From a virus (taxonomy: Duplodnaviria > Caudoviricetes): a DNA stretch of 51,700 bases. Below are positions 9,095 to 28,397 of the stretch, piece after piece; the stretch's first letter is position 1; every line of letters begins with the position of its first letter. A model generated the notes under the pieces. The model was not told where the DNA came from. It was given only the letters and a program-made list of their open reading frames with translations, and made no database searches. The position numbers and the translations under genes are program-made. The stretch is from positions 1 through 51,700 of the IMG/VR virus record IMGVR_UViG_3300021168_000005; one strand, written 5' to 3'.

Positions 9095-10552
9095 TTAATT
9101 GCTAGGAAGTATTAAAATATTCATTGCGCTAGCAGGTGCGCCACTTATGCTCGTTCCAAGTTGAGTCGAAGATACTGTTGAGCCTCCGGCATGGCTAGAA
9201 GCCATTATCAAATTAAAAGTGACTCCAGCATTATTAGCATAAGTAATTGTTGATCCACCAGAACCAGTAAATCCATATCCTGATGCACTTCCCGGTGTTG
9301 CAGTTTCCGAGCCTGCAAAACCTGCGGTTCCATCACTAACATAAGCTACATCTTGTCCAGAAGCCGTAGATGATACATATAACCACCAATGTACTATTAC
9401 TCTACAAGGACAGCCCGACGAAGGCATAGTTACAGCTTTAGTAATAACAGTATTATTACTATTACCGATTGCTGTAGTACTTAACGTAGTTGTCGTAGAC
9501 TGCGCGAGTATTGCTTTAGTAGCGCTGGCGCTAATAGCACTTTGAACAAACGCATCCGTAGCAAGCTGAGTAGTATTATCCGCAGGAGAGCCGTTAGTTG
9601 GTGCAACAGGAGTTCCTGTAAACGTCGGAGATGCTAGCGGCGCAGCTCCACTAATTTGAGAAACTGAATAATCTCCAGTATTCGCTAATATAGCACCAGT
9701 ACGACCAAACACACTAGTAACAGGTGCTCCTCCGGAAGTAACGTATCCTTGTCCTTTAACCCAAGCACTGTTAACAATTTGTGTACTATTATCAGCTAAC
9801 GACTGTGTTGGTGTCGTAGGTGTCCCGCTGAAAACAGGACTAGCAAGTAATGCTAGTGTGCCTCCAACCGCAGGTAATGTAACATTAATATGCCCTGTAG
9901 CCGCTTGACTACATACTGTCGTATCGTCTCCTGCATCGAAATTAAATTTAACACAAGGAACTGTTAAGGTTCCTGTAAAAACAGGATTAGTAGCACCAAT
10001 GATAACAATTTGCCATCCAGTACCATTACAGATAGCAATTAAACATTGACGCATTGTCCCATCAATACTGTTAATATATAATGCACCAAAACCACCATTA
10101 GCTTCGCTATCGCGGTAAGCGCGCGCGATAGTAGGTGCCGTATTAACCGCAGGTACTATCAAGAAGGAACTAAGTGAAGCTGATAAGTTTTGTGAAGCAC
10201 CATGTACGCTAACGATAGCAACAGAACAATTCTGTACGCTCGCATTCGGACATAGAATAAATTGCCAAGTATTTCCTGACGGAGTCACTACCGTGTTGTC
10301 ATCTAAAATGACAGTAAATGTTCCCGTAGCATCAGCCGTTCCAAAATGATTGGAGGTTATAGGATTACCGTTATTTAATGGCGAAGCCGGATTACCAAAC
10401 GGCTGCATAAAATTAGCTTGCCATTGAGCATTTGCCCAAACCTGTCCCGCCGAATCCGTCAACGTTGCTGTTACCGTAGTAAGTGCCGGAGGCGTAGCAC
10501 TGGCAAGGCCAGTAAATATTAATACTAACGCAGCTAGGAGTTTAGATTTCAT
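9095..10552 (-). CDS. tail fibre-like protein with N-terminal signal peptide
   Basis: Two ASP.F.GTP..PT....DN.TQ fibre repeats and VTSVFGRTG; leader MKSKLLAALVLIFTGLASA. Confidence 0.75.
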   Translation of the reverse strand: MKSKLLAALVLIFTGLASATPPALTTVTATLTDSAGQVWANAQWQANFMQPFGNPASPLNNGNPITSNHFGTADATGTFTVILDDNTVVTPSGNTWQFILCPNASVQNCSVAIVSVHGASQNLSASLSSFLIVPAVNTAPTIARAYRDSEANGGFGALYINSIDGTMRQCLIAICNGTGWQIVIIGATNPVFTGTLTVPCVKFNFDAGDDTTVCSQAATGHINVTLPAVGGTLALLASPVFSGTPTTPTQSLADNSTQIVNSAWVKGQGYVTSGGAPVTSVFGRTGAILANTGDYSVSQISGAAPLASPTFTGTPVAPTNGSPADNTTQLATDAFVQSAISASATKAILAQSTTTTLSTTAIGNSNNTVITKAVTMPSSGCPCRVIVHWWLYVSSTASGQDVAYVSDGTAGFAGSETATPGSASGYGFTGSGGSTITYANNAGVTFNLIMASSHAGGSTVSSTQLGTSISGAPASAMNILILPSN

Positions 10553-10739
10553 GTTCTTCTTTTATCCTATTATTAAGTAGATAACTAAGTGTATGAATCA
10601 TCTTTTTAGCTTTTTCTAATTGATCATATGCATCAGTAAATTTACCTTCTTCCCATTTTACTTTAGCAACTTCAATATACCCCATAATACCAGCTAAATC
10701 ATTCTGCACTTTATGCGCCAACTTTCTTGTTATAACCAT
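10542..10739 (-). CDS. stand-alone histidine-kinase DHp (HisKA-like) helical hairpin
   Basis: LAHKVQNDLAGIMGYIEV resembles an H-box, followed by an amphipathic second helix. Confidence 0.55.
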   Translation of the reverse strand: MVITRKLAHKVQNDLAGIMGYIEVAKVKWEEGKFTDAYDQLEKAKKMIHTLSYLLNNRIKEEHEI

Positions 10740-10751
10740 TTTATCCCCGAA

Positions 10752-11144
10752 TTATAAATCATCAATAGCTTTTTCATAATCTATCCAGTTAACTTTCAGC
10801 TCCGCTGAGAGTAGCCGTTCTAAGTTTGTAGCAAAGAAATGTTCTGTTCTATACGGAGCATGAGGATCATCTCCAGGTTCAGCATGGCTATCTTTACTTC
10901 GTTTCTTCTCATATTCAACATCAAACGCTGTTACCTGTTCATCCGTAATACCTCTGTCAAGACAGAGAAGTACCTCTACGAGTTCATGTATACCAACAAG
11001 TAATTCATATCGCCAGTTCCCAATTTTAGATACTCTTATCAAGATAGTATCTTTCTCCGCATCAATCTGCCAATCTCCGACTGTCGGATAACGTTGTTTA
11101 TCATGGTCAATAGTTTCAATTAGTATATTCATTATCTTAACCAT
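10752..11144 (-). CDS. HExxE zincin-like metalloprotein
   Basis: VGIHELVE ... EHFFATNLE metal-ligand pattern; start may be 11132. Confidence 0.6.
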   Translation of the reverse strand: MVKIMNILIETIDHDKQRYPTVGDWQIDAEKDTILIRVSKIGNWRYELLVGIHELVEVLLCLDRGITDEQVTAFDVEYEKKRSKDSHAEPGDDPHAPYRTEHFFATNLERLLSAELKVNWIDYEKAIDDL

Positions 11145-12406
11145 CCTTGCGACATTAGAGTATTATATCGTTTATGTACACAAGTAAGGATATCAGCACG
11201 ATATTGCATGTTCGGTATCTGAAGTTTTTTAATTTTAGAATCTATTTTGCTAAAAGCTTCTGGAATAGTACTGCCGCTCGCAATTGGAACTGTTATTAAT
11301 CCACTAATTCCTGCGGTTACTAATTCGTCTTCTTTGTTAATGCAGCAATCATAAAGATAGTAAGACCGCCAGATATCTTCGACATCTTCTAATCCTTGAA
11401 TAGGAATATCCGGATGATGATGACCATCTATTTCAGAAGGATACGGAGGAATAGAAATTCTTACTCCACCTGCATACTGCGTTTTAATTCTGTATTCAGG
11501 TTTCACACCATGTGCTATCATTGCTAAGAACTCTGCAAGATCAGAACTTATAATATGAAATAATGTCGGAGACGCATCATAGCCGAAGCGTGGTGTCCAT
11601 TCAAGACCGTACATTTCTCGGTCACTTACGATAGTATTAAGATCAATCATCCCTCTATACTTAGCACTTCGCAAGAAGTCTTTAAGCTTTCCAAGTCCTT
11701 CCCGAAACACAAGAGGAAGATTAAGACTATCATAAATAAAAACGAGATTACCAGCGCAGCCAGTATTAGGCCCTTTCCCACCTTCCATGAATTTCTTTTC
11801 TTCGAGAGTTCCATTAACCAGATAAAAATCTTCTCCATTGAACCAACCTTCGGTAGAAACTTCAGTTCCTTCAACAACTTCTTGAAGTAGAAATTCTACG
11901 CCTTTGATAACGCTACCGAGTTTATCAATATAACGCAGCATATCTTCTGGCGACTTACTCACGTAAGTAAATGCCGTATCTTGATCTCCGAAGGCTTTAA
12001 AAACGTATCTCTTTTTAGTTTTCTTAATAAAACTCTTCGCTTCGCCAAGATCGTTAAACTCTTTGTATGGCGGAACATTAATACCACACTGTTCCATTAT
12101 CTGTATACCAGCAAGTCGGTTATTCTCAATTTCACTAGCGAAGCCACTATCGCCTATAACAGGCGCTAAAGTTGCGGCTTCATCAGCAACTTTAGCCATA
12201 TCTGTTGAATCAAAAATTATAAGATCATATTTCTTAAAATCTGGTTTCTCCATCATTAAATCAGGGCAAAGTCCTCCAAGAGCGTTGGAGTAAGCTTTAT
12301 TCTTTTTACCACAATAATAAATATCAACACTATGACCCTCTTCAAGAAATCTCAAAGAGAACCAATTACCAACGCATTCGTGAGTTACTAGTAATAGTTT
12401 TGCCAT
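11132..12406 (-). CDS. PurD (GAR synthetase)-like ATP-grasp ligase
   Basis: YVFK, LQEVVEGTEVS, EEKKFMEGGKGPNTGCAG (compare PurD GPNTGGMG), LEWTPRFGYD. Confidence 0.8.
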   Translation of the reverse strand: MAKLLLVTHECVGNWFSLRFLEEGHSVDIYYCGKKNKAYSNALGGLCPDLMMEKPDFKKYDLIIFDSTDMAKVADEAATLAPVIGDSGFASEIENNRLAGIQIMEQCGINVPPYKEFNDLGEAKSFIKKTKKRYVFKAFGDQDTAFTYVSKSPEDMLRYIDKLGSVIKGVEFLLQEVVEGTEVSTEGWFNGEDFYLVNGTLEEKKFMEGGKGPNTGCAGNLVFIYDSLNLPLVFREGLGKLKDFLRSAKYRGMIDLNTIVSDREMYGLEWTPRFGYDASPTLFHIISSDLAEFLAMIAHGVKPEYRIKTQYAGGVRISIPPYPSEIDGHHHPDIPIQGLEDVEDIWRSYYLYDCCINKEDELVTAGISGLITVPIASGSTIPEAFSKIDSKIKKLQIPNMQYRADILTCVHKRYNTLMSQGWLR

Positions 12407-12423
12407 AGTGTTGATATCTTTCT

Positions 12424-12591
12424 TTATCTTGGTAGAATATTAATAGCATGTCCTGTGCCAATAGCAAGTAAGAAAGCTAACAAGCCACAGAAAAACATTA
12501 TTCTACCAATTTCAGCAAGTTTCGCTTGTGAACAAAGTGCGTACATAAGGACACCAATCAAAGCTACAAGTATACTGAAATAGATTATCAT
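12424..12591 (-). CDS. 55-aa two-TM membrane protein (holin-like; not in ORF track)
   Basis: MIIYFSILVALIGVLMYALCSQAKLAEIGRIMFFCGLLAFLLAIGTGHAINILPR, AAGGA RBS. Confidence 0.65.
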   Translation of the reverse strand: MIIYFSILVALIGVLMYALCSQAKLAEIGRIMFFCGLLAFLLAIGTGHAINILPR

Positions 12592-12613
12592 AGAGTCCTT
12601 TCATCAAAGTTAG

Positions 12614-12796
12614 TTAAGCCCAATCATCTCCCTTCTTTTTGGGCGGTACTCCTTCAGTAGTTCCAGTATTAAAATTACCTCCGCTTCCTCCTTCTGCTCC
12701 AGTAGGAGGACCGTAGGAACCTTCGGTGTTATGTTCGATTCTTTTAATATTTGCTTTTGTTTCTTCGACCGTGTGAACGTGTGGTTGATTTCCCAT
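12614..12796 (-). CDS. 60-aa Gly/Thr/Glu-rich peptide
   Basis: MGNQPHVHTVEETK...GSYGPPTGAEGGSGGNFNTGTTEGVPPKKKGDDWA, AAGGAG upstream. Confidence 0.55.
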   Translation of the reverse strand: MGNQPHVHTVEETKANIKRIEHNTEGSYGPPTGAEGGSGGNFNTGTTEGVPPKKKGDDWA

Positions 12797-12821
12797 TTTA
12801 TCTGCTTTCTCCTTTTTAATT

Positions 12822-14468
12822 TCATTGTTTCTTGTCAGGATCTTTAAGTTGTTCTGCAATTATTCTACCCGGCCAGCCAAGCTTATAAGTTATGTCTCTT
12901 GCTAATCCTCTAGCTTGTTGTTCTGCTTTATAAGTATCGCCCTCTTCGAGGGCTTTATAAATATTCTTGCCCCTTATAACAGGCTTAAAGAAAAAGTCTT
13001 CTATGTTACTAGCAGTTGGGCCTTCTAAGAATCCCTTTCCACGATTATATAAACCTGCTCGCCAAAGAGAATTAAAGATTCCTAAGCCTCCGGCATAGCC
13101 AAGGGCTGAGAAGTATTCTGCTGCGCCTTCATTATCTCGTTTTAGTGGATTCTTTCCGCTTGCAATATTTTCTAGCGAATGTACTAATTCGCCGAAGGCG
13201 GGGAAGACGGTTCCATAAACTAGTAAGGTCTTTGCAAATTCCGCAGGACCACCATACTTGTAAGCTTCAGAGAAGCCACTCCATAAAAATCTTCCGTATC
13301 TATAGGCGAAGTCTTTATATTGAAAAGCCAACCTTGCAACTGCTGACTCTTGCCACTTCCAAGGAGTATCAAGTTCTCGTGTTACCATTATAGAACGATT
13401 CGCTTCTTTAAACATCGCCGTTGATATATCATTCTCTGTAAGCTGAAAGCCTTTCTCAGCAGCTTCATCGTACTTGATACCTAACTTCTCAAGAGTAAAT
13501 TTTGACCATTGGTCATAACCATCTTTAGATAATTTCTCTGCTGCGTCAAGCGCAGCATGTTTACCTGCTAATGCGGCGAGTGTAAGTTCTTGGCGCCTTA
13601 CCCAATTAAAGCCGGGAAAGTGAAATAGTTTTTCAAATAATCCCGCGCCTCTGGCATCAGCCTGCATTTCATAATGAAGTTCATCAAATAAAACACCACT
13701 CTTCATTATTCCATTCATTATATCATCAGCACCAGTGATAACTTTTCCGTAGTCTGCTAACGCTTTAGCGGTTGCTTTAAATCCGCTATCTAGTAACGTA
13801 GCTCCTACTTGACTCATATGCGGAATCGCTATTAATGGCGCATTCATCCATCCATTAGCTTGTCTTAAAGCAACTTCCCAATCTTCAGGATGAGTCCACT
13901 TACCTTTTTCACGTATCTCAACATCAGAAAGACTAATCCCTTTCTTAGCTGTAGGATCAATCTTAACTCTTCTCGTTCGCCATCCCGGTAGGCTTACATC
14001 TTTGCCGGGCAACTTATAAGACTCTCCAGCATCATGCATCACGTAAGATAATGCATCGCTCATCATATTACCGTAAACTTTACCATTAGACTTCGTTGCA
14101 TCGTAGATAGCCTTAATGAGAACTTCGTCTTTCTTACCAAGATAAGTTTGACGAACATCTCCCCACGCCTTACGGCGAGCACTGGTTGATATATCTGCAA
14201 GTGCTTTCTTACGGAACTCCGGCTTCATAGAAGGAGATATGTTTTTAACGCCTACATCAAAATAAGCTTGTGCTGTTTTTCGGCTCTGCGGAATAACAAC
14301 ATTGTCAATATGATCGAGTAGAACTTTACCACTTTCACTTTTAGATAAAATATCTCTAGCTGTTTTAAAGAAACCTTGTCCTTCAGCAAACTTACTCATA
14401 AAGGAAGAGATTCCTTCAGAAGCTTCTTTCTCGACGATATCCCCGGCGATATTACTAAGGCCGCCCAT
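12822..14468 (-). CDS. putative internal virion / DNA ejection protein
   Basis: 548 aa, helical, LAFQYKDFAY motif and hydrophobic C-terminal segments; position in the podovirus ejection block. Confidence 0.55.
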   Translation of the reverse strand: MGGLSNIAGDIVEKEASEGISSFMSKFAEGQGFFKTARDILSKSESGKVLLDHIDNVVIPQSRKTAQAYFDVGVKNISPSMKPEFRKKALADISTSARRKAWGDVRQTYLGKKDEVLIKAIYDATKSNGKVYGNMMSDALSYVMHDAGESYKLPGKDVSLPGWRTRRVKIDPTAKKGISLSDVEIREKGKWTHPEDWEVALRQANGWMNAPLIAIPHMSQVGATLLDSGFKATAKALADYGKVITGADDIMNGIMKSGVLFDELHYEMQADARGAGLFEKLFHFPGFNWVRRQELTLAALAGKHAALDAAEKLSKDGYDQWSKFTLEKLGIKYDEAAEKGFQLTENDISTAMFKEANRSIMVTRELDTPWKWQESAVARLAFQYKDFAYRYGRFLWSGFSEAYKYGGPAEFAKTLLVYGTVFPAFGELVHSLENIASGKNPLKRDNEGAAEYFSALGYAGGLGIFNSLWRAGLYNRGKGFLEGPTASNIEDFFFKPVIRGKNIYKALEEGDTYKAEQQARGLARDITYKLGWPGRIIAEQLKDPDKKQ

Positions 14469-14471
14469 TTA

Positions 14472-16685
14472 TTATTCCTTTTTTCCTAATGAACGATTAA
14501 TAACTTTCTGTCGTTCTTCAGAAGTAAGCTCTTCAAACTTTTTATTAGGATAAAGTTCTTTAAGCGCGTCTCCAAGTTTCATGGTGTCTTTACCAGAAAC
14601 TTTCTGTGTTGCTTCTCGCATTCTGCGATTTAAAGCTTCTTCTTCTGTTTCTTGTGGAACCTTTTTAGTGCTTTCTGCTGCTTTACTTTCTGCTTCTGAA
14701 GCTTGCTGAAGCAACTTAACTTCGTGAGCAAAAGGAGATTCTCCCGGTGCAGAATGTTGTCTCCAATATCTAAATGGTTCTCCTTCTTTCATAAGACCAG
14801 CTTTAGTAGCCTGATCTATATCACTCCAAACTTTATCACTCATCAGTAATAAGTTTGGCAATCGCCCTTTATCTCCTGGAAATTCTTCTTGGAGTTTAGA
14901 CAGCAGAGCTGTGAAAACTTTATTACGTTCTTTCGATGGCCCTAACCTCTGCTGGTCCGTCATTAAGATATTCAGATAGAAAAGAAACTTATGACCTCTA
15001 GCTTCGAACTGTATCTTATTCTTGCCAAGTCCAAGCTTATCTAACTGAGCATCAACATGCTTGGTTAAATTTTCTCCAAATTCTAAACTTTTAGCACTAG
15101 CTACGCCGGGTTTAACTGCAACGCCAGTATCCGGATCAATAGTTCCTTTACCATAAAGATGATCTATTGCCTTCTGTGGGTGATTCCGTATCAGCGTATC
15201 AAGACTATCTTTATTAGCTGCATGAGAGATACTTTCATGCGTTTGTTGTTTGCTTGCGCCCTCTAATTTAGTAAGAACATTATTAAGCTCTGGAACTGCT
15301 GCTCGCTGCTTTACTAAGTCTTGCGCCACGTCAACACCAACAACCGTTTGGTCGATATAAGCGATCTGATCTGCAAACTCAGGAGCTACTTTAGCTAGCT
15401 TCGCTAGTGCAACTTTCTTCATCGCTTCTGGTGCTTTACTGAAATTACCTCCAGTAAGATCATTCAAGGCAGATATAACTGCCGCACTTATTTTCTGCTT
15501 CTGGCTACCTGCTAACGCGATGGTCGGTGTAGAAACTGTCGTTATCGGAGACTTCGTTTTTATATCTTTGATAGCAATATCTACTAAATCTGAAACTCCT
15601 TTTCCACCGGCCCATCCAAATATACGTCCTAAAAACATTTCCGCAGGAGTAAAAATAGCAGTTCCAATACCAAAACCTGCTGCTTCTTTAGGGCCACTTT
15701 CTCCTGATACAGTTCCGACAAGATAACCTTGAGCAGCATTATAAATAGACTTACTAGCAATTTTAGCTACGCCAGTAGCCTTATCGACATTAAGAAGTTC
15801 TCCAATTCCTACTTTACCGAGCAATCCTTCTGAAAGCTCGAAAGCTGGAAGCTGCCCTGCAAATTCTCCCGCTCCGCGCATAATCTTGTTGGTTAGATTT
15901 TGTTTGTAACCATTCAAAGCATACCACTCATCAGCGCTAAGATATTCATCAAGCTTCTTTTCTGTCTTATCTTCTCGCACTGATGTGTAATGGGGATTCA
16001 TAATAATCGGCCCCATGTGAGCAGCGACTGTCGCGCTTAATAGCGCAGTGCCAAGAGAGAACTCTTTAGATAGATTTTGAAAGTGAAAGATAGCAGTTCT
16101 ATTAGCTTCTTCTAAAGCTTTCGCAGTGTGCAACACAGTAGATGCTACGCCACTAGCGCCAGCTTTTAAAGCTTCTTCATGTTTCTTTTCATCTGCTCTA
16201 GTAAGACCAGGAATTATGCCACCTAACGGCTTATCTTGTGCAGAGGGGTTAACTTTTCCCTGCCAGTAAGTTCCTCTATCTCTGGCCCAAGCTTTAAAGT
16301 CTCCCTTATAATTTGCAGCTTTATTTACAGGCTCAACATATTTCTTATAGAAGGCTGCTTGATAAGCAAGTCTTTTTTCCGCTGTCGCGTTCTTGTATAA
16401 GTCACTCTCTTCAAGTGTCTTAAGATGTCTTTGCATCACGACCGAAGGTGGTAACGTAGTTTCTGGTTCATAACTACCGCTAGCATCAGCACGCGCCATT
16501 GCTTCTTTAAATCCCGGAGATTTACTAAGCAACGGAAACATCTCGTCTGTGTTAATCATTATCGGAGACTGATTATTCGCAGACGTAGGAACTTGTGGAG
16601 CATTAGGATTATCTAACGCTCCACTTGTTATTGGAGTCGGTATAGTAATATCATCACTGCTGGTCTGCTGTCGTTGCGGCATCAT
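14472..16685 (-). CDS. putative internal virion / ejection protein
   Basis: 737 aa, Ala/Gly-rich helical middle; synteny. Confidence 0.5.
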   Translation of the reverse strand: MMPQRQQTSSDDITIPTPITSGALDNPNAPQVPTSANNQSPIMINTDEMFPLLSKSPGFKEAMARADASGSYEPETTLPPSVVMQRHLKTLEESDLYKNATAEKRLAYQAAFYKKYVEPVNKAANYKGDFKAWARDRGTYWQGKVNPSAQDKPLGGIIPGLTRADEKKHEEALKAGASGVASTVLHTAKALEEANRTAIFHFQNLSKEFSLGTALLSATVAAHMGPIIMNPHYTSVREDKTEKKLDEYLSADEWYALNGYKQNLTNKIMRGAGEFAGQLPAFELSEGLLGKVGIGELLNVDKATGVAKIASKSIYNAAQGYLVGTVSGESGPKEAAGFGIGTAIFTPAEMFLGRIFGWAGGKGVSDLVDIAIKDIKTKSPITTVSTPTIALAGSQKQKISAAVISALNDLTGGNFSKAPEAMKKVALAKLAKVAPEFADQIAYIDQTVVGVDVAQDLVKQRAAVPELNNVLTKLEGASKQQTHESISHAANKDSLDTLIRNHPQKAIDHLYGKGTIDPDTGVAVKPGVASAKSLEFGENLTKHVDAQLDKLGLGKNKIQFEARGHKFLFYLNILMTDQQRLGPSKERNKVFTALLSKLQEEFPGDKGRLPNLLLMSDKVWSDIDQATKAGLMKEGEPFRYWRQHSAPGESPFAHEVKLLQQASEAESKAAESTKKVPQETEEEALNRRMREATQKVSGKDTMKLGDALKELYPNKKFEELTSEERQKVINRSLGKKE

Positions 16686-17985
16686 CTTCCCCTGACTGGA
16701 ATAGTTGCAGCATTTGCTGCATCTCGTTATCGTCCAATTTTAGGGGATCTTGATTAAAATCATTCTCATCAAGACCAACTCTTTTAGCAGCCTCTGCCGA
16801 GACTATTTTCTGCTGCATCTCTAACAAAGAAAGCTGATTATTTAACGCTTTCAGTGCATTATTATCATGTGCTTTAGCCGCTGCTGTTACTTGTTCTTTA
16901 ATAGCTTTAGCTTGTGAATCTAGTGATTTAATAAGTGTACCCAGTTTCTTATCCTCAATATTTCCAGCCGTAGGCTTAAATCTCTCGCGTAATTGTTGAA
17001 CGCGATTATTAACTCCCTCTAATACTTTATCCGCACGATACTTCCACATGCGTTCCATAATTTGCATTCTATCATTAGCACCTTGCACTGTCATCAATGT
17101 ACGTAGTACTGCGGCTTGAGTGTTTCTATCTTTAGCATCGACCATCATCTTGGCCATGTTCATCTTATCATCATTAGTAAGTTTATTAGCCGCTGCACGT
17201 TGATTGATCTGCATTAAATCCTTAGTGAAGGTTAACTCTTCTCCTGCCTTCGGCAGTACTCCTGATTTCGTCAATTGTTCTATTATTGCTAACCTTGGGT
17301 CCATCTGCGCGGTCTGCGGAACTTGCCTCATAAGCGCTTGCGCTTGAGGAGCTAACATTGTTTTCTTGGCTGCAAAATCTTGCGTGTCTTTAGCAAAAGC
17401 AGCTTTAAGCGCGTCTTGTGCTGGATTAGGTTTCTCCTTCTTTTTCTTTTCCGCAAGAGGATTTAAGTCCACTTCAAAAGCTTTAGCTAGTGCTTTTGCT
17501 TTTTTAGGATCAGAAACGATACCATTAATGATATCTGCATTGTGCTTCATCATTTCTTTATTGCCTGAGGCTTGGGCTTCGTTGTACCCTTTTATAGCTC
17601 CAGACATAATCTCAAAGTCATGCTGAAGTTTCTGAACATCCATCTGATAGTGTTTCTTTTCCGCTCCGCGTACAATATCCGCTATTGTGCCGAATAACGC
17701 TTGCTTATCCGCACGCTTGCGTTCTCCAACACTACCGAACGATCCTTGAGGTATTCCACCTCCCGGTGTAGGCTGCGGAGGTGATGGAACAATTGGACGT
17801 GCTAATTCCGGCCCAAAAGTAATATCGCCTCCAGCACTACCCATTCTTTGTTGTACAAGTTGCTGTATAAGATTTTGTGCTTGTTGCTGAATCGCAGCTT
17901 GATCTGGAAGCGCCGAAGTCGCGGCTCCAGTTAGTAAGTCTGTACCACTTTGTCCGGGCATTAACATTGCAGGATTATCTGGCAT
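16654..17985 (-). CDS. putative internal virion protein (coiled-coil)
   Basis: 443 aa, Q/A/K-rich helical; synteny. Confidence 0.5.
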   Translation of the reverse strand: MPDNPAMLMPGQSGTDLLTGAATSALPDQAAIQQQAQNLIQQLVQQRMGSAGGDITFGPELARPIVPSPPQPTPGGGIPQGSFGSVGERKRADKQALFGTIADIVRGAEKKHYQMDVQKLQHDFEIMSGAIKGYNEAQASGNKEMMKHNADIINGIVSDPKKAKALAKAFEVDLNPLAEKKKKEKPNPAQDALKAAFAKDTQDFAAKKTMLAPQAQALMRQVPQTAQMDPRLAIIEQLTKSGVLPKAGEELTFTKDLMQINQRAAANKLTNDDKMNMAKMMVDAKDRNTQAAVLRTLMTVQGANDRMQIMERMWKYRADKVLEGVNNRVQQLRERFKPTAGNIEDKKLGTLIKSLDSQAKAIKEQVTAAAKAHDNNALKALNNQLSLLEMQQKIVSAEAAKRVGLDENDFNQDPLKLDDNEMQQMLQLFQSGEDDAATTADQQ

Positions 17986-17996
17986 TTAAAATCTCC

Positions 17997-18956: not shown

Positions 18957-18957
18957 G

Positions 18958-19689: not shown

Positions 19690-19694
19690 TTTGG

Positions 19695-20096: not shown

Positions 20097-20111
20097 TTAA
20101 TAACTCCCCTC

Positions 20112-20459: not shown

Positions 20460-21082
20460 TAGATGAAATCCTTCTCATCTGCTTTGCCAACCATCATAAC
20501 GCGCGTTATAGAAACAGCACCGCTATTTGGTAAACGATTCCAAAAAATTTGTGGCCGTTCACCAGAGAGAACATCAATACCAACTTTCATGGTTCGCAAT
20601 GTATTTGAAGGAAATTTAATTTTCCGTCCATCCTTCGGTTTAATAGTTACTACGCGACTGCTAGTTTTAAAACTATCCGTATCTCGAACATAAACGCGAA
20701 CCCCAATAGTAAAGGTTGCAACATCTATTTCTCTGTAAGTTACAAAAAGAAGATGAACAGAAACCTTTCTATTTATCATCACATCTTCTTGACGGAATGT
20801 ATAAAAGCAAGCTTCTTCAGAATTAAAATTAGTTGGATCAATACTAGCTAGATAAGTTTTTTCAAAGATCGAATCAAATACTGGCATCAGCAAGCTGAAC
20901 GAAATTCCTGCTAATCCTCCGGTAGAAGTTATTAATCCGGGAGAACCTTTAATCGTAGATTTTCCTACCGGAGGTTTATATGGTGGATTTGGATTCCCTC
21001 CACCATCTCCACCACCATCAAAAATACGAAGTGTTAACTCACGCTTCCCGTGTAACTTCGCTATGAAATTATCAATATGCAT
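20459..21082 (-). CDS. tail protein, possibly the C-terminal part of a gp10-like nozzle
   Basis: 207 aa, beta-rich, in frame with and 6 nt after the stop of 21089-22447. Confidence 0.5.
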   Translation of the reverse strand: MHIDNFIAKLHGKRELTLRIFDGGGDGGGNPNPPYKPPVGKSTIKGSPGLITSTGGLAGISFSLLMPVFDSIFEKTYLASIDPTNFNSEEACFYTFRQEDVMINRKVSVHLLFVTYREIDVATFTIGVRVYVRDTDSFKTSSRVVTIKPKDGRKIKFPSNTLRTMKVGIDVLSGERPQIFWNRLPNSGAVSITRVMMVGKADEKDFI

Positions 21083-21088
21083 ATCAGT

Positions 21089-22447
21089 TTACTGAATAGC
21101 AACGAAGTTCATTCTTCCAGTAACAGTAAGATTCTTTTTAATCCAAGAAACCCAAGAACTGTCTTCGACTGAATATACCCATATCTTAGTGTCTGCTCCA
21201 AATGGAATAACTAACATATAGGTTAGATAGATATAATTATTAGCCATTCTTGGAACAAACGCACTTAACGGCGTTGAAGATGCATTCGCAAGATCAGTAA
21301 AAATTTGATCGCGTGCCATCCCTCCTACATTTTTAAAACCACCAATAGATATATTATAGATATCGTCACTGCTAATAAACATCCCAATAGGACCATATCC
21401 GGCAATACTAAACGGTAATACGTTACCAATCCCACGATCAGAAGCCCACAGATGATTAAAATCAAAGGGTAATATACCATCACTGACTGCCGTCATTTCT
21501 GATATTCCGTTAGAGCGAAATATGAATCCTGTCTTATCTCCGATAGGAAGATAACCAGTTATAATATCTGGCACTTCTAAAAGATCATTAAATCCTGCAC
21601 CTATGTTAACATTGGTATCCCAAATAGACGGAAGTCCTGAAGGACACCATCTTATACGCTGAGTAAAAGCAGATTGACCAGAACCTTCTATCGTTGAAAG
21701 TAACAATAAACGTGACGCTAGAATACCAAGAAAAAATGCACCGCAAGTAATGCCATTTGTAGCATCTACAACTGCCGTACTATAGAATCCATTAGCCGGT
21801 CCCGGTTTACCATTATTAACCCAAGTAGCAGGCTGACTTCCAGCCGTATCTACTGTATTGCCACCTATAACTAACGACCATACAGGAGCAGCACCACCAG
21901 TAAAACCGGGTTTAACTACTATCTGAACATTACCATTAGAATCTATAATACGAAAATTCGCAAATACCCTTTGGTTTTTAACCCAAGGAACAGGAGTATT
22001 GACGGATGAAATTCCATCCCAAACCCATAAATTATTAGAACCGTTAGTCCAATAAAACTTATTAAGAAATGTCTGATGAGCAACAGGAATATCCGGTCCC
22101 GGTTGGACGGGGAAGGTTCCTATAATGTTCCACGCATTACGCGGATTAATTTGATAATTAGGATTTAACTGCCACAAACCCTTACGGGTCACTATTACTG
22201 TATGTGTGATATTATTACTATCCATAAACGTATCAATAACGTCTATAGGAAAGTTATCTGGAGTTCCAAGTATCTGTGGTGTTATTCTTGGTCTCGTTCG
22301 TAGTTCTTGATTCTTAAGAATGATATTTTGAAGATTAGGAGAATAAACATCTGCCATTTGATTTTCAGGTTCTTCTACGTTGATCCCCTTCCAAGGACCA
22401 TTATAGATTGCCTCAAAATAACCATTCTCTTTTATTTGAATAGGCAA
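21089..22447 (-). CDS. P22 gp10-like tail hub / head-closure protein
   Basis: KGIN...LRTRP start, beta-propeller-like repeats (FYWTNG, IRWC, IWVYS..SSW). Confidence 0.6.
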   Translation of the reverse strand: MPIQIKENGYFEAIYNGPWKGINVEEPENQMADVYSPNLQNIILKNQELRTRPRITPQILGTPDNFPIDVIDTFMDSNNITHTVIVTRKGLWQLNPNYQINPRNAWNIIGTFPVQPGPDIPVAHQTFLNKFYWTNGSNNLWVWDGISSVNTPVPWVKNQRVFANFRIIDSNGNVQIVVKPGFTGGAAPVWSLVIGGNTVDTAGSQPATWVNNGKPGPANGFYSTAVVDATNGITCGAFFLGILASRLLLLSTIEGSGQSAFTQRIRWCPSGLPSIWDTNVNIGAGFNDLLEVPDIITGYLPIGDKTGFIFRSNGISEMTAVSDGILPFDFNHLWASDRGIGNVLPFSIAGYGPIGMFISSDDIYNISIGGFKNVGGMARDQIFTDLANASSTPLSAFVPRMANNYIYLTYMLVIPFGADTKIWVYSVEDSSWVSWIKKNLTVTGRMNFVAIQ

Positions 22448-22468
22448 AGTTTATTCTCCTTCGGATTG

Positions 22469-22537
22469 TTACTTTTCTTTCTTTTTCTTAAGCGGTAGCT
22501 TAACTTTCTTTCCAGACTTTACAATTTTATCTTTCAT
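22469..22537 (-). CDS. 22-aa lysine-rich micropeptide
   Basis: MKDKIVKSGKKVKLPLKKKKEK with AAGGAG RBS, fills the intergenic gap. Confidence 0.4.
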   Translation of the reverse strand: MKDKIVKSGKKVKLPLKKKKEK

Positions 22538-22561
22538 AGTTAGGCCGCTCCTTTTCTATTT

Positions 22562-25500
22562 TTAGTTACCAACACAGTTGAAACTAAAACCGTCAGAAAC
22601 CGTATTCGGACCAGTTACAGTAAAATGACTCCCATCAGTATAAGTGATTGCTAATGAGTTAGCAGGATTCGTTGTATTACTAACAGCACACTTATAAGAA
22701 GTGTTCGATGTGAAAACAGCCGCACCAGATAACGTTATTACTTTCGTACTCGGTGTTCCTGATGTTAAACTCGAAGAGTCTGCTATTATGTGGACGTTTA
22801 CTAATTGAGTTCCTGAAACATTATAAGTAACTGGAACTGTCGTAAGATTAGTAACTGGCGTCGTAGACGCTGCTTTAAAAGGGGCAGTGCCAGTACTAAG
22901 CAGAGATTCTATCTGTCCAGTATTATTAACACGCCCAACCTTAGCTCCTGAGTTAACTACTTGACTAGATACACTTGGCGTACTAATCCACCAATTTATA
23001 GCACCACCAATACCAGCACCAGTAGACGGACCTCCGGTTATATCTGAATCAGTACCGGACTGATCTGTAGTATTAAAGTTATTAGAAGCCGAAGGTTTTG
23101 GTGCTCCCCGTCCAAACATTCCAGTGTATTCTAAAATATTACGAGTTGCGTCATTGGAAGCACCATTATCAGAACGACCTCCAATAGACACTGAAGATGC
23201 CGAAGCATTAGCCGGAGGATTATTTGTACCTATATTACCAATATCCCAAACTAACGCTTTAGTTCCTAATCTACGTTGTAAAGCTCCATTATATTGTGTT
23301 CCTCCAAGAGATGGTAAAGTCCATGATTGGTAAAATATTCCTTGATAAGGAACAACATTTGGTCCAATAGTCTGCGATACACGAATATCCCAATCAAAAG
23401 GTTGATCGCAACATGTTTGTGGATTTTGTCCTGCTGTATTATCGAACCAATCTTGACGGGATACTAATAATCCATCAATTACAGAACCAGTTAAAGCTGC
23501 TCTAATTTGACCACCTGCTTCAATTACATCTTCAAGTCTAAGCTGAGGAACACAACCACTTTTAATATTAAAAGTAACTTCACAGTCTATGGCATTCTCA
23601 TTTAAATACACCATAGTCATACCACCACTCGTCACAGTTCCATGATTCCATGTTGGTTCTACTAAAAAATTAGAACTAGTATCCGGTCCAGGACATCCTA
23701 ACTTATCATAACGAGTAATCCAGCTAGCATTAAGAGTTATACTAGTTGCAGTGTTAGATGCAATAGTATTATAACAACCTGCATTTTTACCAGATAAAAC
23801 TGAAAGACTCATTCCAGCAAAACCATTTACTGTAAAGTTAGCTTGATTAATAGGCAAACCTGAAGGTGTGAAGTGTCCTCCGTTTGTACCACCAACCCAA
23901 TCATGCGTACTATCCGGTGATCCTGTTGCAGCAGTTATTAACATTGAAGAAGCTGAGAATGCTGGTACTCCGCTAGGAGTAAACGTGGCTAGAGTAGTGT
24001 TGTCGGTCCAAACATGTGTACCGTCAGCAGTGCCACTAAAATTGGAACAATTAAAAAGTACACTAGTATTTCCAGAGCCAATAGTACAAGTTACACCTGT
24101 AACAGCTTGCTGTGCAATATCTCCGAATACAAAAGATCCGCTTGTAAGAGTACCAGAAATTGTAGCACTAGAACTAGGTGCTGTAAGTACTGTACCAGTA
24201 GAACCAGTTACGGCTTGTGTTACTACTTCATTAGGAGTTATTCCAAATTTAAGAATAGTAACAGCACCAGCAACTGTTTGGTTAGTATCTACTAACGTAG
24301 TTGAACTACCACTGCTAGCAGTTAATAATGCCGTAGGCGTTCCTATACCATTCGCAGCACCAGCATTACTTGTAACTGTATAAAAAGCTCCATCTCCAGC
24401 AACTATAGAACCTATCATTATAGAACCGACAGGAAAAGTTTGACCTGGTGGTAAGAAAGCAGCTTGATTAATAACGCGAGTCTTATGTAATACTATATCA
24501 TTACCAGATATAAGCCGACGGCTTTCTGATCGCATATAGTCCATAGAACATGGACCTTGTGTTAACTCACAATACATATCAAATCCGGTCTGTGTTGAAT
24601 ATCCATTCTCCATTGAAGATTCTTCAACACCATCTCCGAAAGACACATATCCGCCGCCGTAAACGGCAATGCCATTTTTGTTACAACCTTGCATATCACC
24701 ACTAAAACCAATAGCAAGGGCATTGCCTGCTAAATTAGCATGTGTACCAATCTGAGCACAAGCCTCAGTAAAAGACTGGAATGCACAATCTCTACAATAA
24801 ATATTCGAACCTTGTGCTGCACCTCCAGATTTAGCAATTTCTAAACCGATAAATCCTACTCCACTACCAGCAAAATTAACGTGATTAAAATCTAAAAACT
24901 GTGGTTTTAAGTCTCCTGGAGTAGTAACACCATCCCAATCAATATCTACAAGTGCCACATTTTGAGAAGCTTGTGTGCTAAAACCTATATTATCAATAAC
25001 TCCGTAAGTATTACTTTGACCATTGATAATTCGTTTATTAGTAACAGTTTGATTAAATCCAGACGCTAAACGATTAATACCATGTATGGCAAAGCCATTG
25101 GTATTAAACATTTTTAATTCATCATTAATTTGATAAATACTTCCAATATGAAGTGGCCGGTTATATTGCGAAAGCCCACTAGCATTAGTACGTGCTTGCG
25201 TTTTACCTCCACCAAATGCTGCCCAAATAGATGCTTGTATAGCAGGAGTATTGGTGCTTGCACTAGCATTAGTAGAAGCTCCCCACCATTCAGGAACTAC
25301 ATCGAATGTTATTCCAGAGCCAGTAAAATCTACTACTCCATGCCCAGTAGCACTGTCAGCATTATAAAAGATTTGGTGTTGATCTGGATCATAAATACCG
25401 CCCCAAATGGTCGCTGTAGCATTTCCCGGTTTTAAAGAAACTAAACTATAAACCCAAGTTCCCGGTGAAGGATTAGTACTAATGGTCTGCGTAGCAGAAG

Positions 25501-26935
25501 TAGAACCTCCGCCAGAAGCATTAGCATATTCCATACAAATAGAACCATTAGGACTAGATTGTCCTGCTGTACTAGCAGGCTGCGTATATCCTGCTCCAGC
25601 CGTACATGTTTCAGGAAAGGTAAATGGTTGACCACCGAAGGCGAATAAAAACGCTCCTGTAAGTGTAGTAGCCGAACCACTACTCATAGTGGTTCCAGTA
25701 TTATTATTCGATGCGCTATTATCTAACGAAGTTACTGGCCCCATTCCGGATACTTGTGCTACTATCATCATGTGCGTAGTAAGGGAGCCATTCGCTATTG
25801 CTGTGATAGTACAACTTCCACCAGTAACGTTAGAAGCTACCCAAGCTCCTTGATTACGTGGTTGTCCGAATAGCGATTGAAAAACGTGAATATAAAAATT
25901 ACCACAACTATCTGTTACCTTAGTAGTTTTAAAAGTGAACCCCGGATACGGGGCTTCACCTACGACAAGTGTATTACCTGTTGTAACACTAAAAGCAGGT
26001 AAAGAACACGTAATGCCTGAGCCGCATTCTACGCTAGTACCACTAACAAAAGTTCCACCGCCTATAGCAGTATTAGAACTAATGAGCTGTATAGCTCCAC
26101 CACCGGAAAAATCTAATGTAATATTCTGATTAAAAAATGTATTCCCTATACGACAAGCCGCACCGGGAGTAGTAGAACCTACAAAACGAATAGTTGCTTC
26201 ATTTGTGCCAATCGTAGATAATAAAAGATTCATTCCCGCTGAAGCATCTGTTCCCGTAACTCCATTCCCATCACAAGTCATCCAGTCTCTAGTATCATAG
26301 ATAGCTTTATTTTGTGGCACCCACAAAGATGATCCAGTGTTCCATGTTGGGAATTGAGAATTATTAGTTCCCGGATTTATATTACCACCACCCCCACCTC
26401 CGGTAGAAATGTCTTGCCAGATAGTACCATTGAAAAATCTAATCTTATTAGTATTAAGATTATAATATGCAATACCCGGCCCTAAGTTTAGTGCTGCTTC
26501 TGTATCATTGTAGAACTTAGGATAGTTAAATGAATTACCAATGGCACTAATAATGGATGCATTAATCGGCCCACTAAGGTCTATCGCAGGCCCAAATACA
26601 TCTTGAAGTGAACTTGCACAAGGAAGATTAGCATTACTACAAACTGTAAAAGTCCACTGTCCGCCTAACGGTGTAACTTTATGATCGTCAGTCAGGGTAA
26701 GAGTAAAAGTCCCCGAACCGTTCATAGTTCCATTTACATTATATGGAAAAGCTACACCATTTAATTTGTAAGTAAAAACAGAAATATTTCCACTGCTAGG
26801 TGTAAATGCAGCAGATACAGTGCCATTAGTAAACGTCTGCCCATCTGGATACATGATTGTTCCAGTGACAGAAGTAGTTTGAGCGGCTACTATACAACTA
26901 CTAAGAAGCAATGTTAATGTAAGAAATTTTTTCAT
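22562..26935 (-). CDS. large tailspike/fibre-like protein (beta-helix region) with signal peptide
   Basis: Leader MKKFLTLTLLLSSCIVAA; PEWWGA...NTPAIQA beta-helix cap motif; T/G/S-rich. Confidence 0.75.
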   Translation of the reverse strand: MKKFLTLTLLLSSCIVAAQTTSVTGTIMYPDGQTFTNGTVSAAFTPSSGNISVFTYKLNGVAFPYNVNGTMNGSGTFTLTLTDDHKVTPLGGQWTFTVCSNANLPCASSLQDVFGPAIDLSGPINASIISAIGNSFNYPKFYNDTEAALNLGPGIAYYNLNTNKIRFFNGTIWQDISTGGGGGGNINPGTNNSQFPTWNTGSSLWVPQNKAIYDTRDWMTCDGNGVTGTDASAGMNLLLSTIGTNEATIRFVGSTTPGAACRIGNTFFNQNITLDFSGGGAIQLISSNTAIGGGTFVSGTSVECGSGITCSLPAFSVTTGNTLVVGEAPYPGFTFKTTKVTDSCGNFYIHVFQSLFGQPRNQGAWVASNVTGGSCTITAIANGSLTTHMMIVAQVSGMGPVTSLDNSASNNNTGTTMSSGSATTLTGAFLFAFGGQPFTFPETCTAGAGYTQPASTAGQSSPNGSICMEYANASGGGSTSATQTISTNPSPGTWVYSLVSLKPGNATATIWGGIYDPDQHQIFYNADSATGHGVVDFTGSGITFDVVPEWWGASTNASASTNTPAIQASIWAAFGGGKTQARTNASGLSQYNRPLHIGSIYQINDELKMFNTNGFAIHGINRLASGFNQTVTNKRIINGQSNTYGVIDNIGFSTQASQNVALVDIDWDGVTTPGDLKPQFLDFNHVNFAGSGVGFIGLEIAKSGGAAQGSNIYCRDCAFQSFTEACAQIGTHANLAGNALAIGFSGDMQGCNKNGIAVYGGGYVSFGDGVEESSMENGYSTQTGFDMYCELTQGPCSMDYMRSESRRLISGNDIVLHKTRVINQAAFLPPGQTFPVGSIMIGSIVAGDGAFYTVTSNAGAANGIGTPTALLTASSGSSTTLVDTNQTVAGAVTILKFGITPNEVVTQAVTGSTGTVLTAPSSSATISGTLTSGSFVFGDIAQQAVTGVTCTIGSGNTSVLFNCSNFSGTADGTHVWTDNTTLATFTPSGVPAFSASSMLITAATGSPDSTHDWVGGTNGGHFTPSGLPINQANFTVNGFAGMSLSVLSGKNAGCYNTIASNTATSITLNASWITRYDKLGCPGPDTSSNFLVEPTWNHGTVTSGGMTMVYLNENAIDCEVTFNIKSGCVPQLRLEDVIEAGGQIRAALTGSVIDGLLVSRQDWFDNTAGQNPQTCCDQPFDWDIRVSQTIGPNVVPYQGIFYQSWTLPSLGGTQYNGALQRRLGTKALVWDIGNIGTNNPPANASASSVSIGGRSDNGASNDATRNILEYTGMFGRGAPKPSASNNFNTTDQSGTDSDITGGPSTGAGIGGAINWWISTPSVSSQVVNSGAKVGRVNNTGQIESLLSTGTAPFKAASTTPVTNLTTVPVTYNVSGTQLVNVHIIADSSSLTSGTPSTKVITLSGAAVFTSNTSYKCAVSNTTNPANSLAITYTDGSHFTVTGPNTVSDGFSFNCVGN

Positions 26936-26939
26936 AGTA

Positions 26940-28397
26940 TTAATTAGCATGACAGCTAACTTCTAAAATGTCCGATGCAGTCCAAGCTTGAGCAGCTCCC
27001 GCTGCTGTAAATTGACCTATAGGTGCGGTCGTCGTTGTACCAGCACCAGTTTGTTTACAACGAAATACAGTAGAAGAACTTGTCGTTACATCTTCACAAT
27101 TACAATACCAACTATGTGCTGCTATTGGTAATCCTATAGTTCCAGTACTCGCTGCTCCACCAGTACCAACGTTAATTTCAAAAGAAGCCGTAGAATTAGC
27201 ATTAACAATAGATGGTGAAGTTCCAAATCCTGCTGAAATAGTTGGGGCCGTATTAGAAATTATTAAATTACCTGTCCCCATAGAAATTTTCGTTGGGTCT
27301 ATTTCTAAAAATTGATTTCCGATAGTAAAAGCCGTATTACCCGCAGCACCATTACCCCAAGTTAGAATTATATTAGATCCTGCCCCACCAAAAATTCCTG
27401 ATGTATTTGCAACACCAGCACCACCATTTAATATATACCCCGGTACAGAAAAATCATTTGTACAAGTTACTGGATTTGTAACTGTTCCTGCTACTGCTGG
27501 TCCTGTACAAGTTGCTGTTCCACTAGTACCACCAACTAAACCAACAATACCACCAGCACCAGTTTTACCAATATTTAATGTTGTAGACGTTCCGCAATTA
27601 GCTGCGCCGAATACTAAGTTAAGAGCACTAACACCAGCAATCTGCATATCTATAAGCTTTGAAGATATTGCTGCTGCGGTACAAGTTGTATTAAAGAGTA
27701 TATTTGTAAATGTTGCACCTGCCGCATTCCAAGTTTGTGTGCTATTAATAGTTGGAGTATTAGCTACTATACTTCCTTGAGTTAATGCAATATTAGTTTG
27801 ATATGCTGGCGCTGCTGATCCACCAGTATTATTGCCGTAAACTGTTCCTGCTGCTGCATTAGATAGCGAGAATGATAATGCTGGCGTCGTTGTTGGTGTA
27901 GCAACTGAAGTTGTAAATAATGGAGATAATGTTCCTGCGGAAAACGAAGTAACTGTTCCTCCACCTCCACCTCCAGAGGGATTATTGGCATAGCCTGTAA
28001 GATTAGTAGTAAGCGAAGCACTCCCTACGGGAGTTATAGATGTTATATTAATTCTAGTAAAATTAACGGTCTGCGCTGTAGAAATAGCGTTGCCATTAGC
28101 TGTACAGGTTTGAGCAGCAACTATATCACCAATGTTCCATGTTACTCCATCAGCGCTACTATCAACTCTCACAGAGCACGCTGAAAGCGTTCCCGTAACA
28201 TTCCAGCTTAGTTGATGATATTGTGCTCCTGTACCAATAATATTGCAAGAAGAAAGAAAGTCTCCACAAGAAGTGCTTACAGTAGTACTATTATGAGTAA
28301 CTGCCGAATAAACATACTGAATAGTCTGAGCTTCGCTGTGCTTCGCGCAGCAAAATAATAGCGCAGCTAATAGCGAAGCTAGAAAGATTCTTTTCAT
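26940..28397 (-). CDS. fibre-like protein with signal peptide
   Basis: Leader MKRIFLASLLAALLFCCAKHSEA; GGGGGTVTS and TTTPALSF fibre motifs. Confidence 0.7.
   Translation of the reverse strand: MKRIFLASLLAALLFCCAKHSEAQTIQYVYSAVTHNSTTVSTSCGDFLSSCNIIGTGAQYHQLSWNVTGTLSACSVRVDSSADGVTWNIGDIVAAQTCTANGNAISTAQTVNFTRINITSITPVGSASLTTNLTGYANNPSGGGGGGTVTSFSAGTLSPLFTTSVATPTTTPALSFSLSNAAAGTVYGNNTGGSAAPAYQTNIALTQGSIVANTPTINSTQTWNAAGATFTNILFNTTCTAAAISSKLIDMQIAGVSALNLVFGAANCGTSTTLNIGKTGAGGIVGLVGGTSGTATCTGPAVAGTVTNPVTCTNDFSVPGYILNGGAGVANTSGIFGGAGSNIILTWGNGAAGNTAFTIGNQFLEIDPTKISMGTGNLIISNTAPTISAGFGTSPSIVNANSTASFEINVGTGGAASTGTIGLPIAAHSWYCNCEDVTTSSSTVFRCKQTGAGTTTTAPIGQFTAAGAAQAWTASDILEVSCHAN

Follow-up and report, generated by a model that had tools for sequence, protein, structure and literature searches.

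Three fibre-like proteins of an uncultured tailed phage carry conserved, predicted Sec-type leaders and may mature in the periplasm

Tailed-phage assembly is, in the textbook view, wholly cytoplasmic, and three late genes of the virus record IMGVR_UViG_3300021168_000005 therefore raise the question of why their fibre-like or spike-like products should begin with export signals, and where such proteins would go. The window analysed here is the complete viral record; it is 51,700 bases long and bounded by direct terminal repeats, and we read it as a lytic, podovirus-like, uncultured phage. An original prediction, made from the letters of the DNA, had placed Sec-type signal peptides on the three proteins, here called A, B and C, against the premise that tailed-phage fibres lack such leaders; that premise held in one control, the 1897-aa tail fibre of Bacteroides phage B40-8. 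Full-text literature searches, whose coverage left out most subscription journals, turned up no account of tailed-phage fibres with signal peptides. The three genes and their leaders are as follows:

9095-10552, minus strand: gene A, 485 aa, last but one in the late operon, after the internal-protein genes
10496-10552, minus strand: leader of A, residues 1-19, MKSKLLAALVLIFTGLASA, predicted cleavage ASA↓T, then PP
22562-26935, minus strand: gene B, 1457 aa, a conserved core protein of the phage group
26882-26935, minus strand: leader of B, residues 1-18, MKKFLTLTLLLSSCIVAA, predicted cleavage VAA↓Q, then TT
26940-28397, minus strand: gene C, 485 aa, with its stop 5 nt before the B start
28329-28397, minus strand: leader of C, residues 1-23, MKRIFLASLLAALLFCCAKHSEA, predicted cleavage SEA↓Q, then TI

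When the three open reading frames were re-read, the leaders had the positions and sequences first given for them. Leaders were judged, heuristically and by conservation, on a basic n-region, a hydrophobic h-region some 7-15 residues long and, at positions -3 and -1, residues that are small and uncharged. Those of A, B and C were composed of KSK, LLAALVLIF and ASA↓T; of KK, LTLTLLL and VAA↓Q; and of KR, IFLASLLAALLF and SEA↓Q, respectively. A crude scan of 28 late-strand proteins flagged six, among which only A, B and C combined a basic n-region, an h-region within the first 20 or so residues and a -3/-1 site; the other three had no K/R or an internal membrane segment. The start of C was preceded by AAAGGAG, 8 nt 5′ of its ATG, and an in-frame ATG at 26950, upstream of the B start at 26935, would add only MLINT to a protein whose homologues begin with MKK. 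No conserved internal start that could give a leaderless form was found, the next Met of A being residue 49, inside the following domain, and the Met at residue 28 of B not being kept in its orthologues. A lipoprotein (signal peptidase II) reading was rejected for B, whose lipobox-like Cys14 (LSSC) was kept in 2 of 34 aligned orthologues, and for C, whose Cys16/17 were absent in the relatives P0007, P0011 and P0012.

Directly behind the leaders of A and B lie related domains of about 160 residues (N-domain):

9998-10495, minus strand: N-domain of A, residues 20-185, a transthyretin-like beta-sandwich common with B
26402-26881, minus strand: N-domain of B, residues 19-178, paralogous to that of A

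The two N-domains shared 33% identity over 163 aa (BLASTP, E 2e-13), and C was unrelated in sequence to A and to B. A two-sequence profile covering leader and N-domain retrieved 2224 cluster representatives at E ≤1e-3 among 1.84 billion proteins, 1273 of them at E ≤1e-10. All 150 listed matches started within the first 29 residues of proteins ranging from 120 to 1547 aa, and 4 of 52 scanned members carried pectate-lyase-like, K1-lyase_C or GDSL domains, a fifth the B-repeat alone and the other 47 no family; judged from these matches, the N-domain is a module fixed at the N-terminus of otherwise very dissimilar proteins. Neither the N-domain of A nor C was matched in 50,697 deposited phage records (INPHARED), and no relative emerged when species genomes were first scanned with the N-domain profile.

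Conservation of the leaders in homologues, which the original prediction had named as a check, was borne out in all three families. An h-region was present in 142 of the 150 best relatives of the A/B N-domain, the remaining eight being fragments or proteins that look like calls from internal starts. Counting from the conserved start of the mature domain, A, G, S, C or T followed by Q stood just before that domain in 121 of the 150, as compared with a Q background of 3.5% in the remaining protein; among these 121, position -1 was A in 65, G in 31 and S in 16 (A/G/S in 112), and position -3 was A in 33, S in 31, L in 18 and V in 13 (A/S/L/V/T in 105). Most of the other relatives ended in A↓T or A↓A, like A, and the closest homologue of A, P0122, had a different leader that still ended in ASA↓TPP. 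The leaders of B orthologues began with MKK and ended in A↓Q. Relatives of the B body, many of which had an N-terminal domain of another type, carried an h-region in 48 of 54 and a small residue followed by Q in 43 of 54; four of the six leaderless ones were truncated or fragments, and the leaderless P0311 and P0327 had ordinary fibre N-termini and shared only 30-52% of B. Among the 119 listed matches to C, 80 had a leader and 74 the small residue followed by Q, and of 19 inspected whole, 15 had a leader, one was cut inside it and three lacked it (P0016, P0025 and P0102). The close C relatives P0007, P0009, P0011 and P0012 had diverged leaders in which the SEA↓Q ending was kept.

In all, leader sequences varied freely while the domain behind them was conserved, which is the pattern of a signal peptide and not that of a structural element. 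The Sec-type character proposed for the three leaders therefore stands far beyond chance, being conserved in form and not in sequence, and the comparisons given here show them as predicted signal-peptidase-I-type leaders that are under selection in thousands of relatives. From its distribution over unrelated domains, the leader is best described as accompanying the destination of the protein and not one particular domain. As a separate observation, an extra Q↓C(V/I)GxC motif was present at the predicted cleavage site in eight of 83 aligned N-domain proteins (P0127, P0135, P0143, P0150, P0151 and others), where it would put a second Cys pair at the mature N-terminus.

The Cys content followed the leaders. 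The "many Cys" originally noted were confirmed, with totals of 8, 27 and 14 in A, B and C, of which 8, 26 and 12, respectively, lie after the leaders. Thirteen late-strand proteins without family match or role had 0-2 Cys each, nine of them none; other Cys-rich late-strand proteins were the terminase, an ATP-grasp protein, one small protein with CxxC and a few short ones. Among 83 aligned N-domain members, C101 and C109 were both present in 77, both absent in six and never found singly, and the Cys count was even in 72 of the 83 (p 4e-12). In 39 B orthologues, the pair 221/261 was kept in 39/39, 714/717 in 31/39 each, 1054/1081 in 34/39 each and 344/375 in 20/39 each, with an even count in 32/39. 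Matches to C with a leader had a median Cys content of 1.4% versus 0.5% in those without (whole sequences), a difference also found over residues 31 to the end (Mann-Whitney, p 4e-4), and an even count was found in 62 of 80 leader-bearing matches (p 8e-7) versus 23 of 39 leaderless ones. Such a Cys pattern, as far as sequence comparison can tell, marks proteins that are disulfide-bonded outside the cytoplasm, and it goes together with the leader. Export and disulfide-dependent folding of A, B and C, as first suggested, are thus well supported, the comparative evidence of leader form, Cys pairs and even counts speaking strongly for them.

The mature parts were described originally as fibre repeats or a beta-helix. 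Fibre repeats were found in A, through PHROG families, and in C, through a shared repeat, whereas the beta-helix of B has only weak leads. The segments concerned are:

9416-9907, minus strand: tail-fibre repeat region of A, residues 216-379, matched by PHROG tail-fibre families
27993-28328, minus strand: N-domain of C, residues 24-135, a jelly-roll-like beta-sandwich with 4 Cys
27798-27959, minus strand: generic fibre repeat of C, about residues 147-200, GTVTSFSAGTLSPLFTTSVATPTTTPALSFSL...
26943-27260, minus strand: C-terminal domain of C, residues 380-485, with 4 Cys, predicted local distance difference test (pLDDT) 83-91

A matched seven tail-fibre PHROGs over residues 223-379, including phrog_2631 (E 3.5e-14), phrog_4209 and phrog_454, and B and C matched no tail-fibre PHROG. 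B had no sequence match in Pfam, PHROG, NCBIfam or PDB, and language-model searches gave weak leads to pectate-lyase-like tailspikes (scores 0.75-0.78). Its residues 190-1457 had 54 homologues, most of them aligned over about 90% or more of the query at 35-81% identity, and by this measure B is a conserved core gene and not a variable one. The N-domain of C was common to P0002-P0012, whose C-terminal parts differ, and its C-terminal domain was conserved in P0006, P0008, P0013, P0014, P0025, P0029, P0081 and P0088. The generic fibre repeat is the segment common to most of the 119 listed C matches, both leader-bearing and leaderless. This repeat, GTVTSFSAGxLSPLFTTSVATxTTTPALSFxLS, is very widespread (27798-27959; P0016, P0018, P0037 and P0102) and is sometimes present in several copies per protein, with or without a leader.

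In AlphaFold2 (AF2) models, residues 20-185 of A had a pLDDT of 94-98, and the fibre part was not modelled as a monomer. The fold matches of this domain (VIA) were transthyretin/CarboxypepD_reg-like, with Z 7.6-9.3 and a root-mean-square deviation of 2.1-2.8 over 78-90 residues, a common arrangement; they included residues 1-93 of the cyanophage neck fibre 8keg_a (Z 8.9), residues 1-90 of the Ur-lambda tail-tip chain 9e7m_Ta (Z 7.6) and a SusC N-terminal extension. A weak match to predicted viral fibre N-termini was also obtained (BFVD, "Lambda-like tail fibre N-terminal", E 3e-3). None of the 83 N-domain members matched PF08400 in Pfam, three of 83 matched PF13620 (CarboxypepD_reg) below the cut-off (best E 0.0042), and the A-family N-domain profile had no match among solved structures. 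For C, the N-domain (pLDDT 55-66) gave generic sandwiches as fold matches (Z ≤8.7), and N-domain and middle part together were poorly modelled (pLDDT 36-66).

The late operon, which runs on the minus strand from about 39,000 to 8,700, encodes small and large terminase, portal and HK97-type major capsid protein (Pfam/PHROG matches). B and C are placed after the head genes and before the tail genes, and A occupies a fibre slot like that of gp17 in the T7 gene order. Relatives whose large terminase protein was 45-81% identical had leader-bearing genes in the same slots, with a C-like gene after a 122-aa gene, a B-like gene before a 452-aa gene and one to three tandem genes for leader plus N-domain after the ATP-grasp gene. 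N-domain genes were present in 5/5 related virus records, one to three in each and nine matches in total (four records 100% complete, one 94%). C orthologues shared the N-domain alone, with swapped C-terminal parts, and the syntenic orthologue in record L007 (18037-19704) retained the leader. Conserved N-termini joined to exchangeable C-termini are how phage receptor-binding proteins evolve. Family scans of the proteins of this genome gave no fibre-like gene besides A, B and C.

These features lead us to favour, tentatively and at somewhat under an even chance, a reading in which A, B and C are fibres or spikes of receptor-binding or depolymerase type, made as Sec pre-proteins, matured in the periplasm and joined to the particles at lysis. 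The leaders would send unfolded chains through SecYEG, and signal peptidase I would cut after ASA, VAA or SEA, exposing Gln in B and C, which the host might cyclise. The chains would then fold, trimerise and form disulfides in the periplasm. DNA-filled particles, assembled in the cytoplasm, would meet the fibres only once the two compartments are joined by holin lesions or lysis, and the fibres would dock via their N-terminal domains, transthyretin-like in A and B and jelly-roll-like in C. What the phage would gain are adhesins stabilised by disulfides and blocked at the N-terminus. No type IX secretion system (T9SS) C-terminal sorting domain of the Por_Secre_tail/TIGR04183 type was found in A, B or C (Pfam/NCBIfam, E ≤0.01) or among the 52 scanned N-domain family members, and since no such or other onward signal was seen, the proteins would be expected to stay periplasmic until lysis. 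That fibres and spikes can join finished particles is known from classical in-vitro complementation. The virion route is favoured because the genome has no fibre-like genes other than A, B and C, and because these lie in fibre slots, evolve in the manner of receptor-binding proteins and, in A, contain tail-fibre repeats. Extended to the relatives, the same reading would describe a widespread uncultured lineage of tailed phages whose fibres mature in the periplasm, by Sec export, cleavage, pyroglutamate formation and disulfide bonding, and arm the particles at lysis, which we regard as possible, with a chance appreciably below even.

Several points weigh against this reading. Export and cleavage are inferred from sequence, and disulfides could also arise once the proteins are released. 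If the fibres attach after lysis, dilution becomes a risk, and we know of no precedent for such attachment in tailed phages. Conservation of B extends along the entire protein (35-81% identity), which is not what typical host-range proteins show. The fold matches of the N-domain are middling (Z <9.5) and fall on a very common sandwich. In the mosaic adhesive trimer (MAT) fibres of Bdellovibrio, a conserved domain behind a signal peptide serves display on the cell surface, and the shared N-domain is thus not specific evidence for a virion anchor. Finally, no spanin or classical endolysin was recognised in the genome, which leaves the lysis step of the model without them.

The strongest competitor, which we consider unlikely though clearly ahead of the remaining ones, is that A, B and C are exported and never join virions, acting instead at the envelope of the infected cell as adhesins or depolymerases. 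Displayed or released, they might strip or mask receptors, so that superinfection is excluded or progeny do not stick to debris, or loosen capsule or matrix for release, or glue infected cells to new hosts. Their envelope anchor would be the shared N-domain, on the model of the Bdellovibrio MAT fibres. All the evidence for export and disulfide bonding applies equally here; the lyase and GDSL domains on four of the 52 scanned family members fit such enzymes, and signal-peptide proteins of Porphyromonas phages that follow the Q-rule (Gln behind the cleavage site) were proposed, in the part of that study drawn on here, to modify the host surface (PMC10367356). On the other hand, no receptor-binding protein could in that case be recognised in the genome, and the three genes lie in fibre slots of the late structural operon and are core to the lineage. 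Moreover, A has tail-fibre repeats, parts of B and C recur in the leaderless canonical fibres P0311, P0327, P0016 and P0102, and no outer-membrane sorting signal was found, neither a T9SS domain nor a conserved lipobox.

A dual fate, in which export is partial, chains folded before capture by SecA arm the virions and the exported fraction serves as free enzyme or adhesin, appears improbable. Post-translational Sec targeting does compete with folding, and many phages release free depolymerase beside the virion-bound enzyme; however, to judge from the conserved disulfide pairs, the functional fold requires oxidising surroundings, and a leaderless isoform would have to arise without a conserved internal start codon. 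It is very improbable that the hydrophobic N-termini are uncleaved membrane anchors or structural helices of cytoplasmic fibres, gathering the fibres at the inner membrane or inserting into the host membrane at infection. AF2 modelled the leader of A as a helix (residues 2-16, pLDDT 84-89), which says little either way, whereas a structural helix needs no small residues at -3/-1 and no Q at +1, kept here across unrelated leaders; the drift of the leaders in front of a conserved domain, as well as Cys parity and pairing, which point to an oxidising compartment, also speak against it. That the real starts lie downstream of the leaders has a negligible chance, because nothing in its favour was found beyond a few database homologues called from internal starts (P0278, P0205, P0217 and P0268), while a strong Shine-Dalgarno (SD) sequence precedes the ATG of C, the B start is coupled to the C stop and hundreds of independent homologues retain the leaders, as do the syntenic orthologues.

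Five known systems share features with the periplasmic route favoured here. Canonical fibres and tailspikes (lambda Stf, the cyanophage A-1(L) neck fibre gp5 and the P22/T7 type) have the same conserved N-module, exchangeable C-parts and late-operon position, a transthyretin-like N-terminal sandwich resembling that predicted for A and B (8keg_a and 9e7m_Ta) and tail-fibre repeats; they start directly with the domain, without leader, and fold in the cytoplasm, whereas A, B and C bear leaders. The closest known architecture is that of the MAT fibres of Bdellovibrio bacteriovorus, which, in the portion of Caulton et al. 2024 (PMC10769870) considered here, have a signal peptide followed by a conserved beta-rich domain, a fibre and a variable tip, with several paralogues per genome sharing the N-domain. 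According to the same portion of that paper (PMC10769870), these are bacterial proteins displayed on the surface for prey recognition, whereas A, B and C belong to a tailed-phage structural operon, and the N-domains are likened here by layout. The solved MAT chains gave no match to the A4 profile, and Pfam gave no S74 domain in A, B or C. These chains presumably cover fibre tips only.

Phages of Porphyromonas gingivalis, the nearest case in the literature searched, also encode proteins with Sec signal peptides whose cleavage exposes Gln, which Matrishin et al. 2023 (PMC10367356), in the excerpts used, read as an adaptation to the host export pathway. As presented in those excerpts (PMC10367356), they are encoded by five genes whose function is unknown, belong to temperate phages and have been proposed as modifiers of the host outer membrane; they are not described there as fibres or as the core of a structural operon. 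Late Sec export followed by a wait for the holin is known for lysis proteins, namely the signal-peptide endolysin Lys44 of fOg44 and signal-arrest-release (SAR) endolysins, which are, in the sections of the source relied on (PMC6116005), lysis-cassette enzymes and not fibre-like or virion proteins. This phage has a terminase, a portal and an HK97-type capsid protein and would thus package its DNA in the cytoplasm, unlike the filamentous phages. In the latter, virion proteins with signal peptides are well known (g8p and g3p, the second of which needs periplasmic disulfides), and particle assembly takes place at the envelope, through which the virions are extruded.

In a complete phage genome, all the fibre-like proteins thus bear a conserved export signal, as do more than 2000 related sequence clusters. 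If A, B and C are virion parts, phage morphogenesis would span two cell compartments, a pathway not described for Caudoviricetes, and infectivity would depend on the Sec, signal peptidase, disulfide and glutaminyl-cyclase systems of the host; signal peptides would no longer exclude candidates for receptor-binding proteins in annotation, and the style of the cleavage site would become a clue for host prediction. If they are not, the largest late genes of the lineage would serve envelope remodelling, and the true receptor-binding proteins would lie elsewhere.

Regarding the host, Gln at +1 of the signal peptidase I site is typical of Bacteroidetes, with a mean of 71%, as given in the part of Bochtler et al. 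2018 (PMC5837995) cited here. Q at +1 was present in B, C and 121 of the 150 N-domain family members, while A has Thr, and two homologues came from one metagenome-assembled genome (MAG) labelled "Bacteroidia bacterium". An SD core stood 5′ of 41 of 74 genes in the window, versus a background of 11%, and of 6 of 46 genes in Bacteroides phage B40-8. Capsid relatives, 48-49% identical, were found on contigs binned in two Acidobacteriaceae MAGs, in which the N-domain occurred on contigs C2, C18 and C510 only, C2 and C18 being the capsid-bearing phage contigs. The CarboxypepD_reg proteins of these MAGs themselves had a small residue followed by Q in 13-14 of 14 parsed N-termini (of 30 loci), so that the Q-rule may extend to Acidobacteriaceae, at least for exported proteins of CarboxypepD_reg type. 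Q at +1 as proof of a Bacteroidetes host was accordingly withdrawn, in view of the heavy SD use and of these Acidobacteriaceae proteins, and heavy SD use together with the Acidobacteriaceae links cuts against a Bacteroidia host. The phage lineage spans 36-60% GC, and the available hints are to Acidobacteriota and Bacteroidota; the firm point, as read from the cleavage sites, is that the leaders resemble the host's own export signals.

The genes adjoining A and B in the late operon include the following:

11132-12406, minus strand: PurD-like ATP-grasp protein (GARS_A E 2e-11; purD 74.8 bits, far below cut-off)
10752-11144, minus strand: 130-aa protein, then A; it follows the ATP-grasp gene in most relatives
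12424-12591, minus strand: candidate holin, 55 aa, two hydrophobic segments by hydropathy scan, no family match
8700-9071, minus strand: Tlde1/YkuD-like (L,D-transpeptidase-fold) protein, 123 aa, no leader (PF10908 E 1.1e-11; phrog_24118)
21089-22447, minus strand: 452-aa protein directly downstream of B, candidate tail hub or nozzle by position and language-model leads

The ATP-grasp gene lay directly 5′ of the leader-bearing fibre genes in all relatives examined (42-58% identity), and its product and the 130-aa protein could modify or chaperone fibres. The Tlde1/YkuD-like protein may be a cell-wall enzyme of the lysis step. For the 452-aa protein, language-model leads of 0.90-0.94 were to unnamed viral clusters and to the Phage_stabilise and DTP-pb9 families.

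In the rest of the late operon, the head genes are followed on their 3′ side by unnamed proteins and three large Cys-free proteins of internal or ejection type, and the operon ends with the PurD-like ATP-grasp protein and, last, the Tlde1/YkuD-like protein. No tape-measure or tail-tube gene was recognised in the window, and a scan of the whole window gave no tRNAs. The terminase and capsid proteins shared just 21-36% identity with their counterparts in deposited phages, several of which we take to be podoviruses. The plus strand contains replication genes, namely those for a family A polymerase, a DUF3987 primase-helicase and an FtsK-like ATPase, and further genes for a PD-(D/E)XK nuclease, MazG, a Cpn10-like protein and a DnaJ-domain protein. 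The FtsK/SpoIIIE-family ATPase (47658-48800, plus strand, E 5.5e-29), which lies among the replication genes, is to our knowledge not a usual gene of small podovirus-like phages. The Cpn10/GroES-like protein, with a Cys-rich N-terminal extension (8134-8703, plus strand), and the DnaJ-domain protein (45444-45974, plus strand) are possible folding helpers. Adjoining the capsid gene, a 103-aa protein with CxxC...CxxxxC (29393-29704, minus strand) was kept in all relatives, including those of 59% GC, at 29-73% identity.

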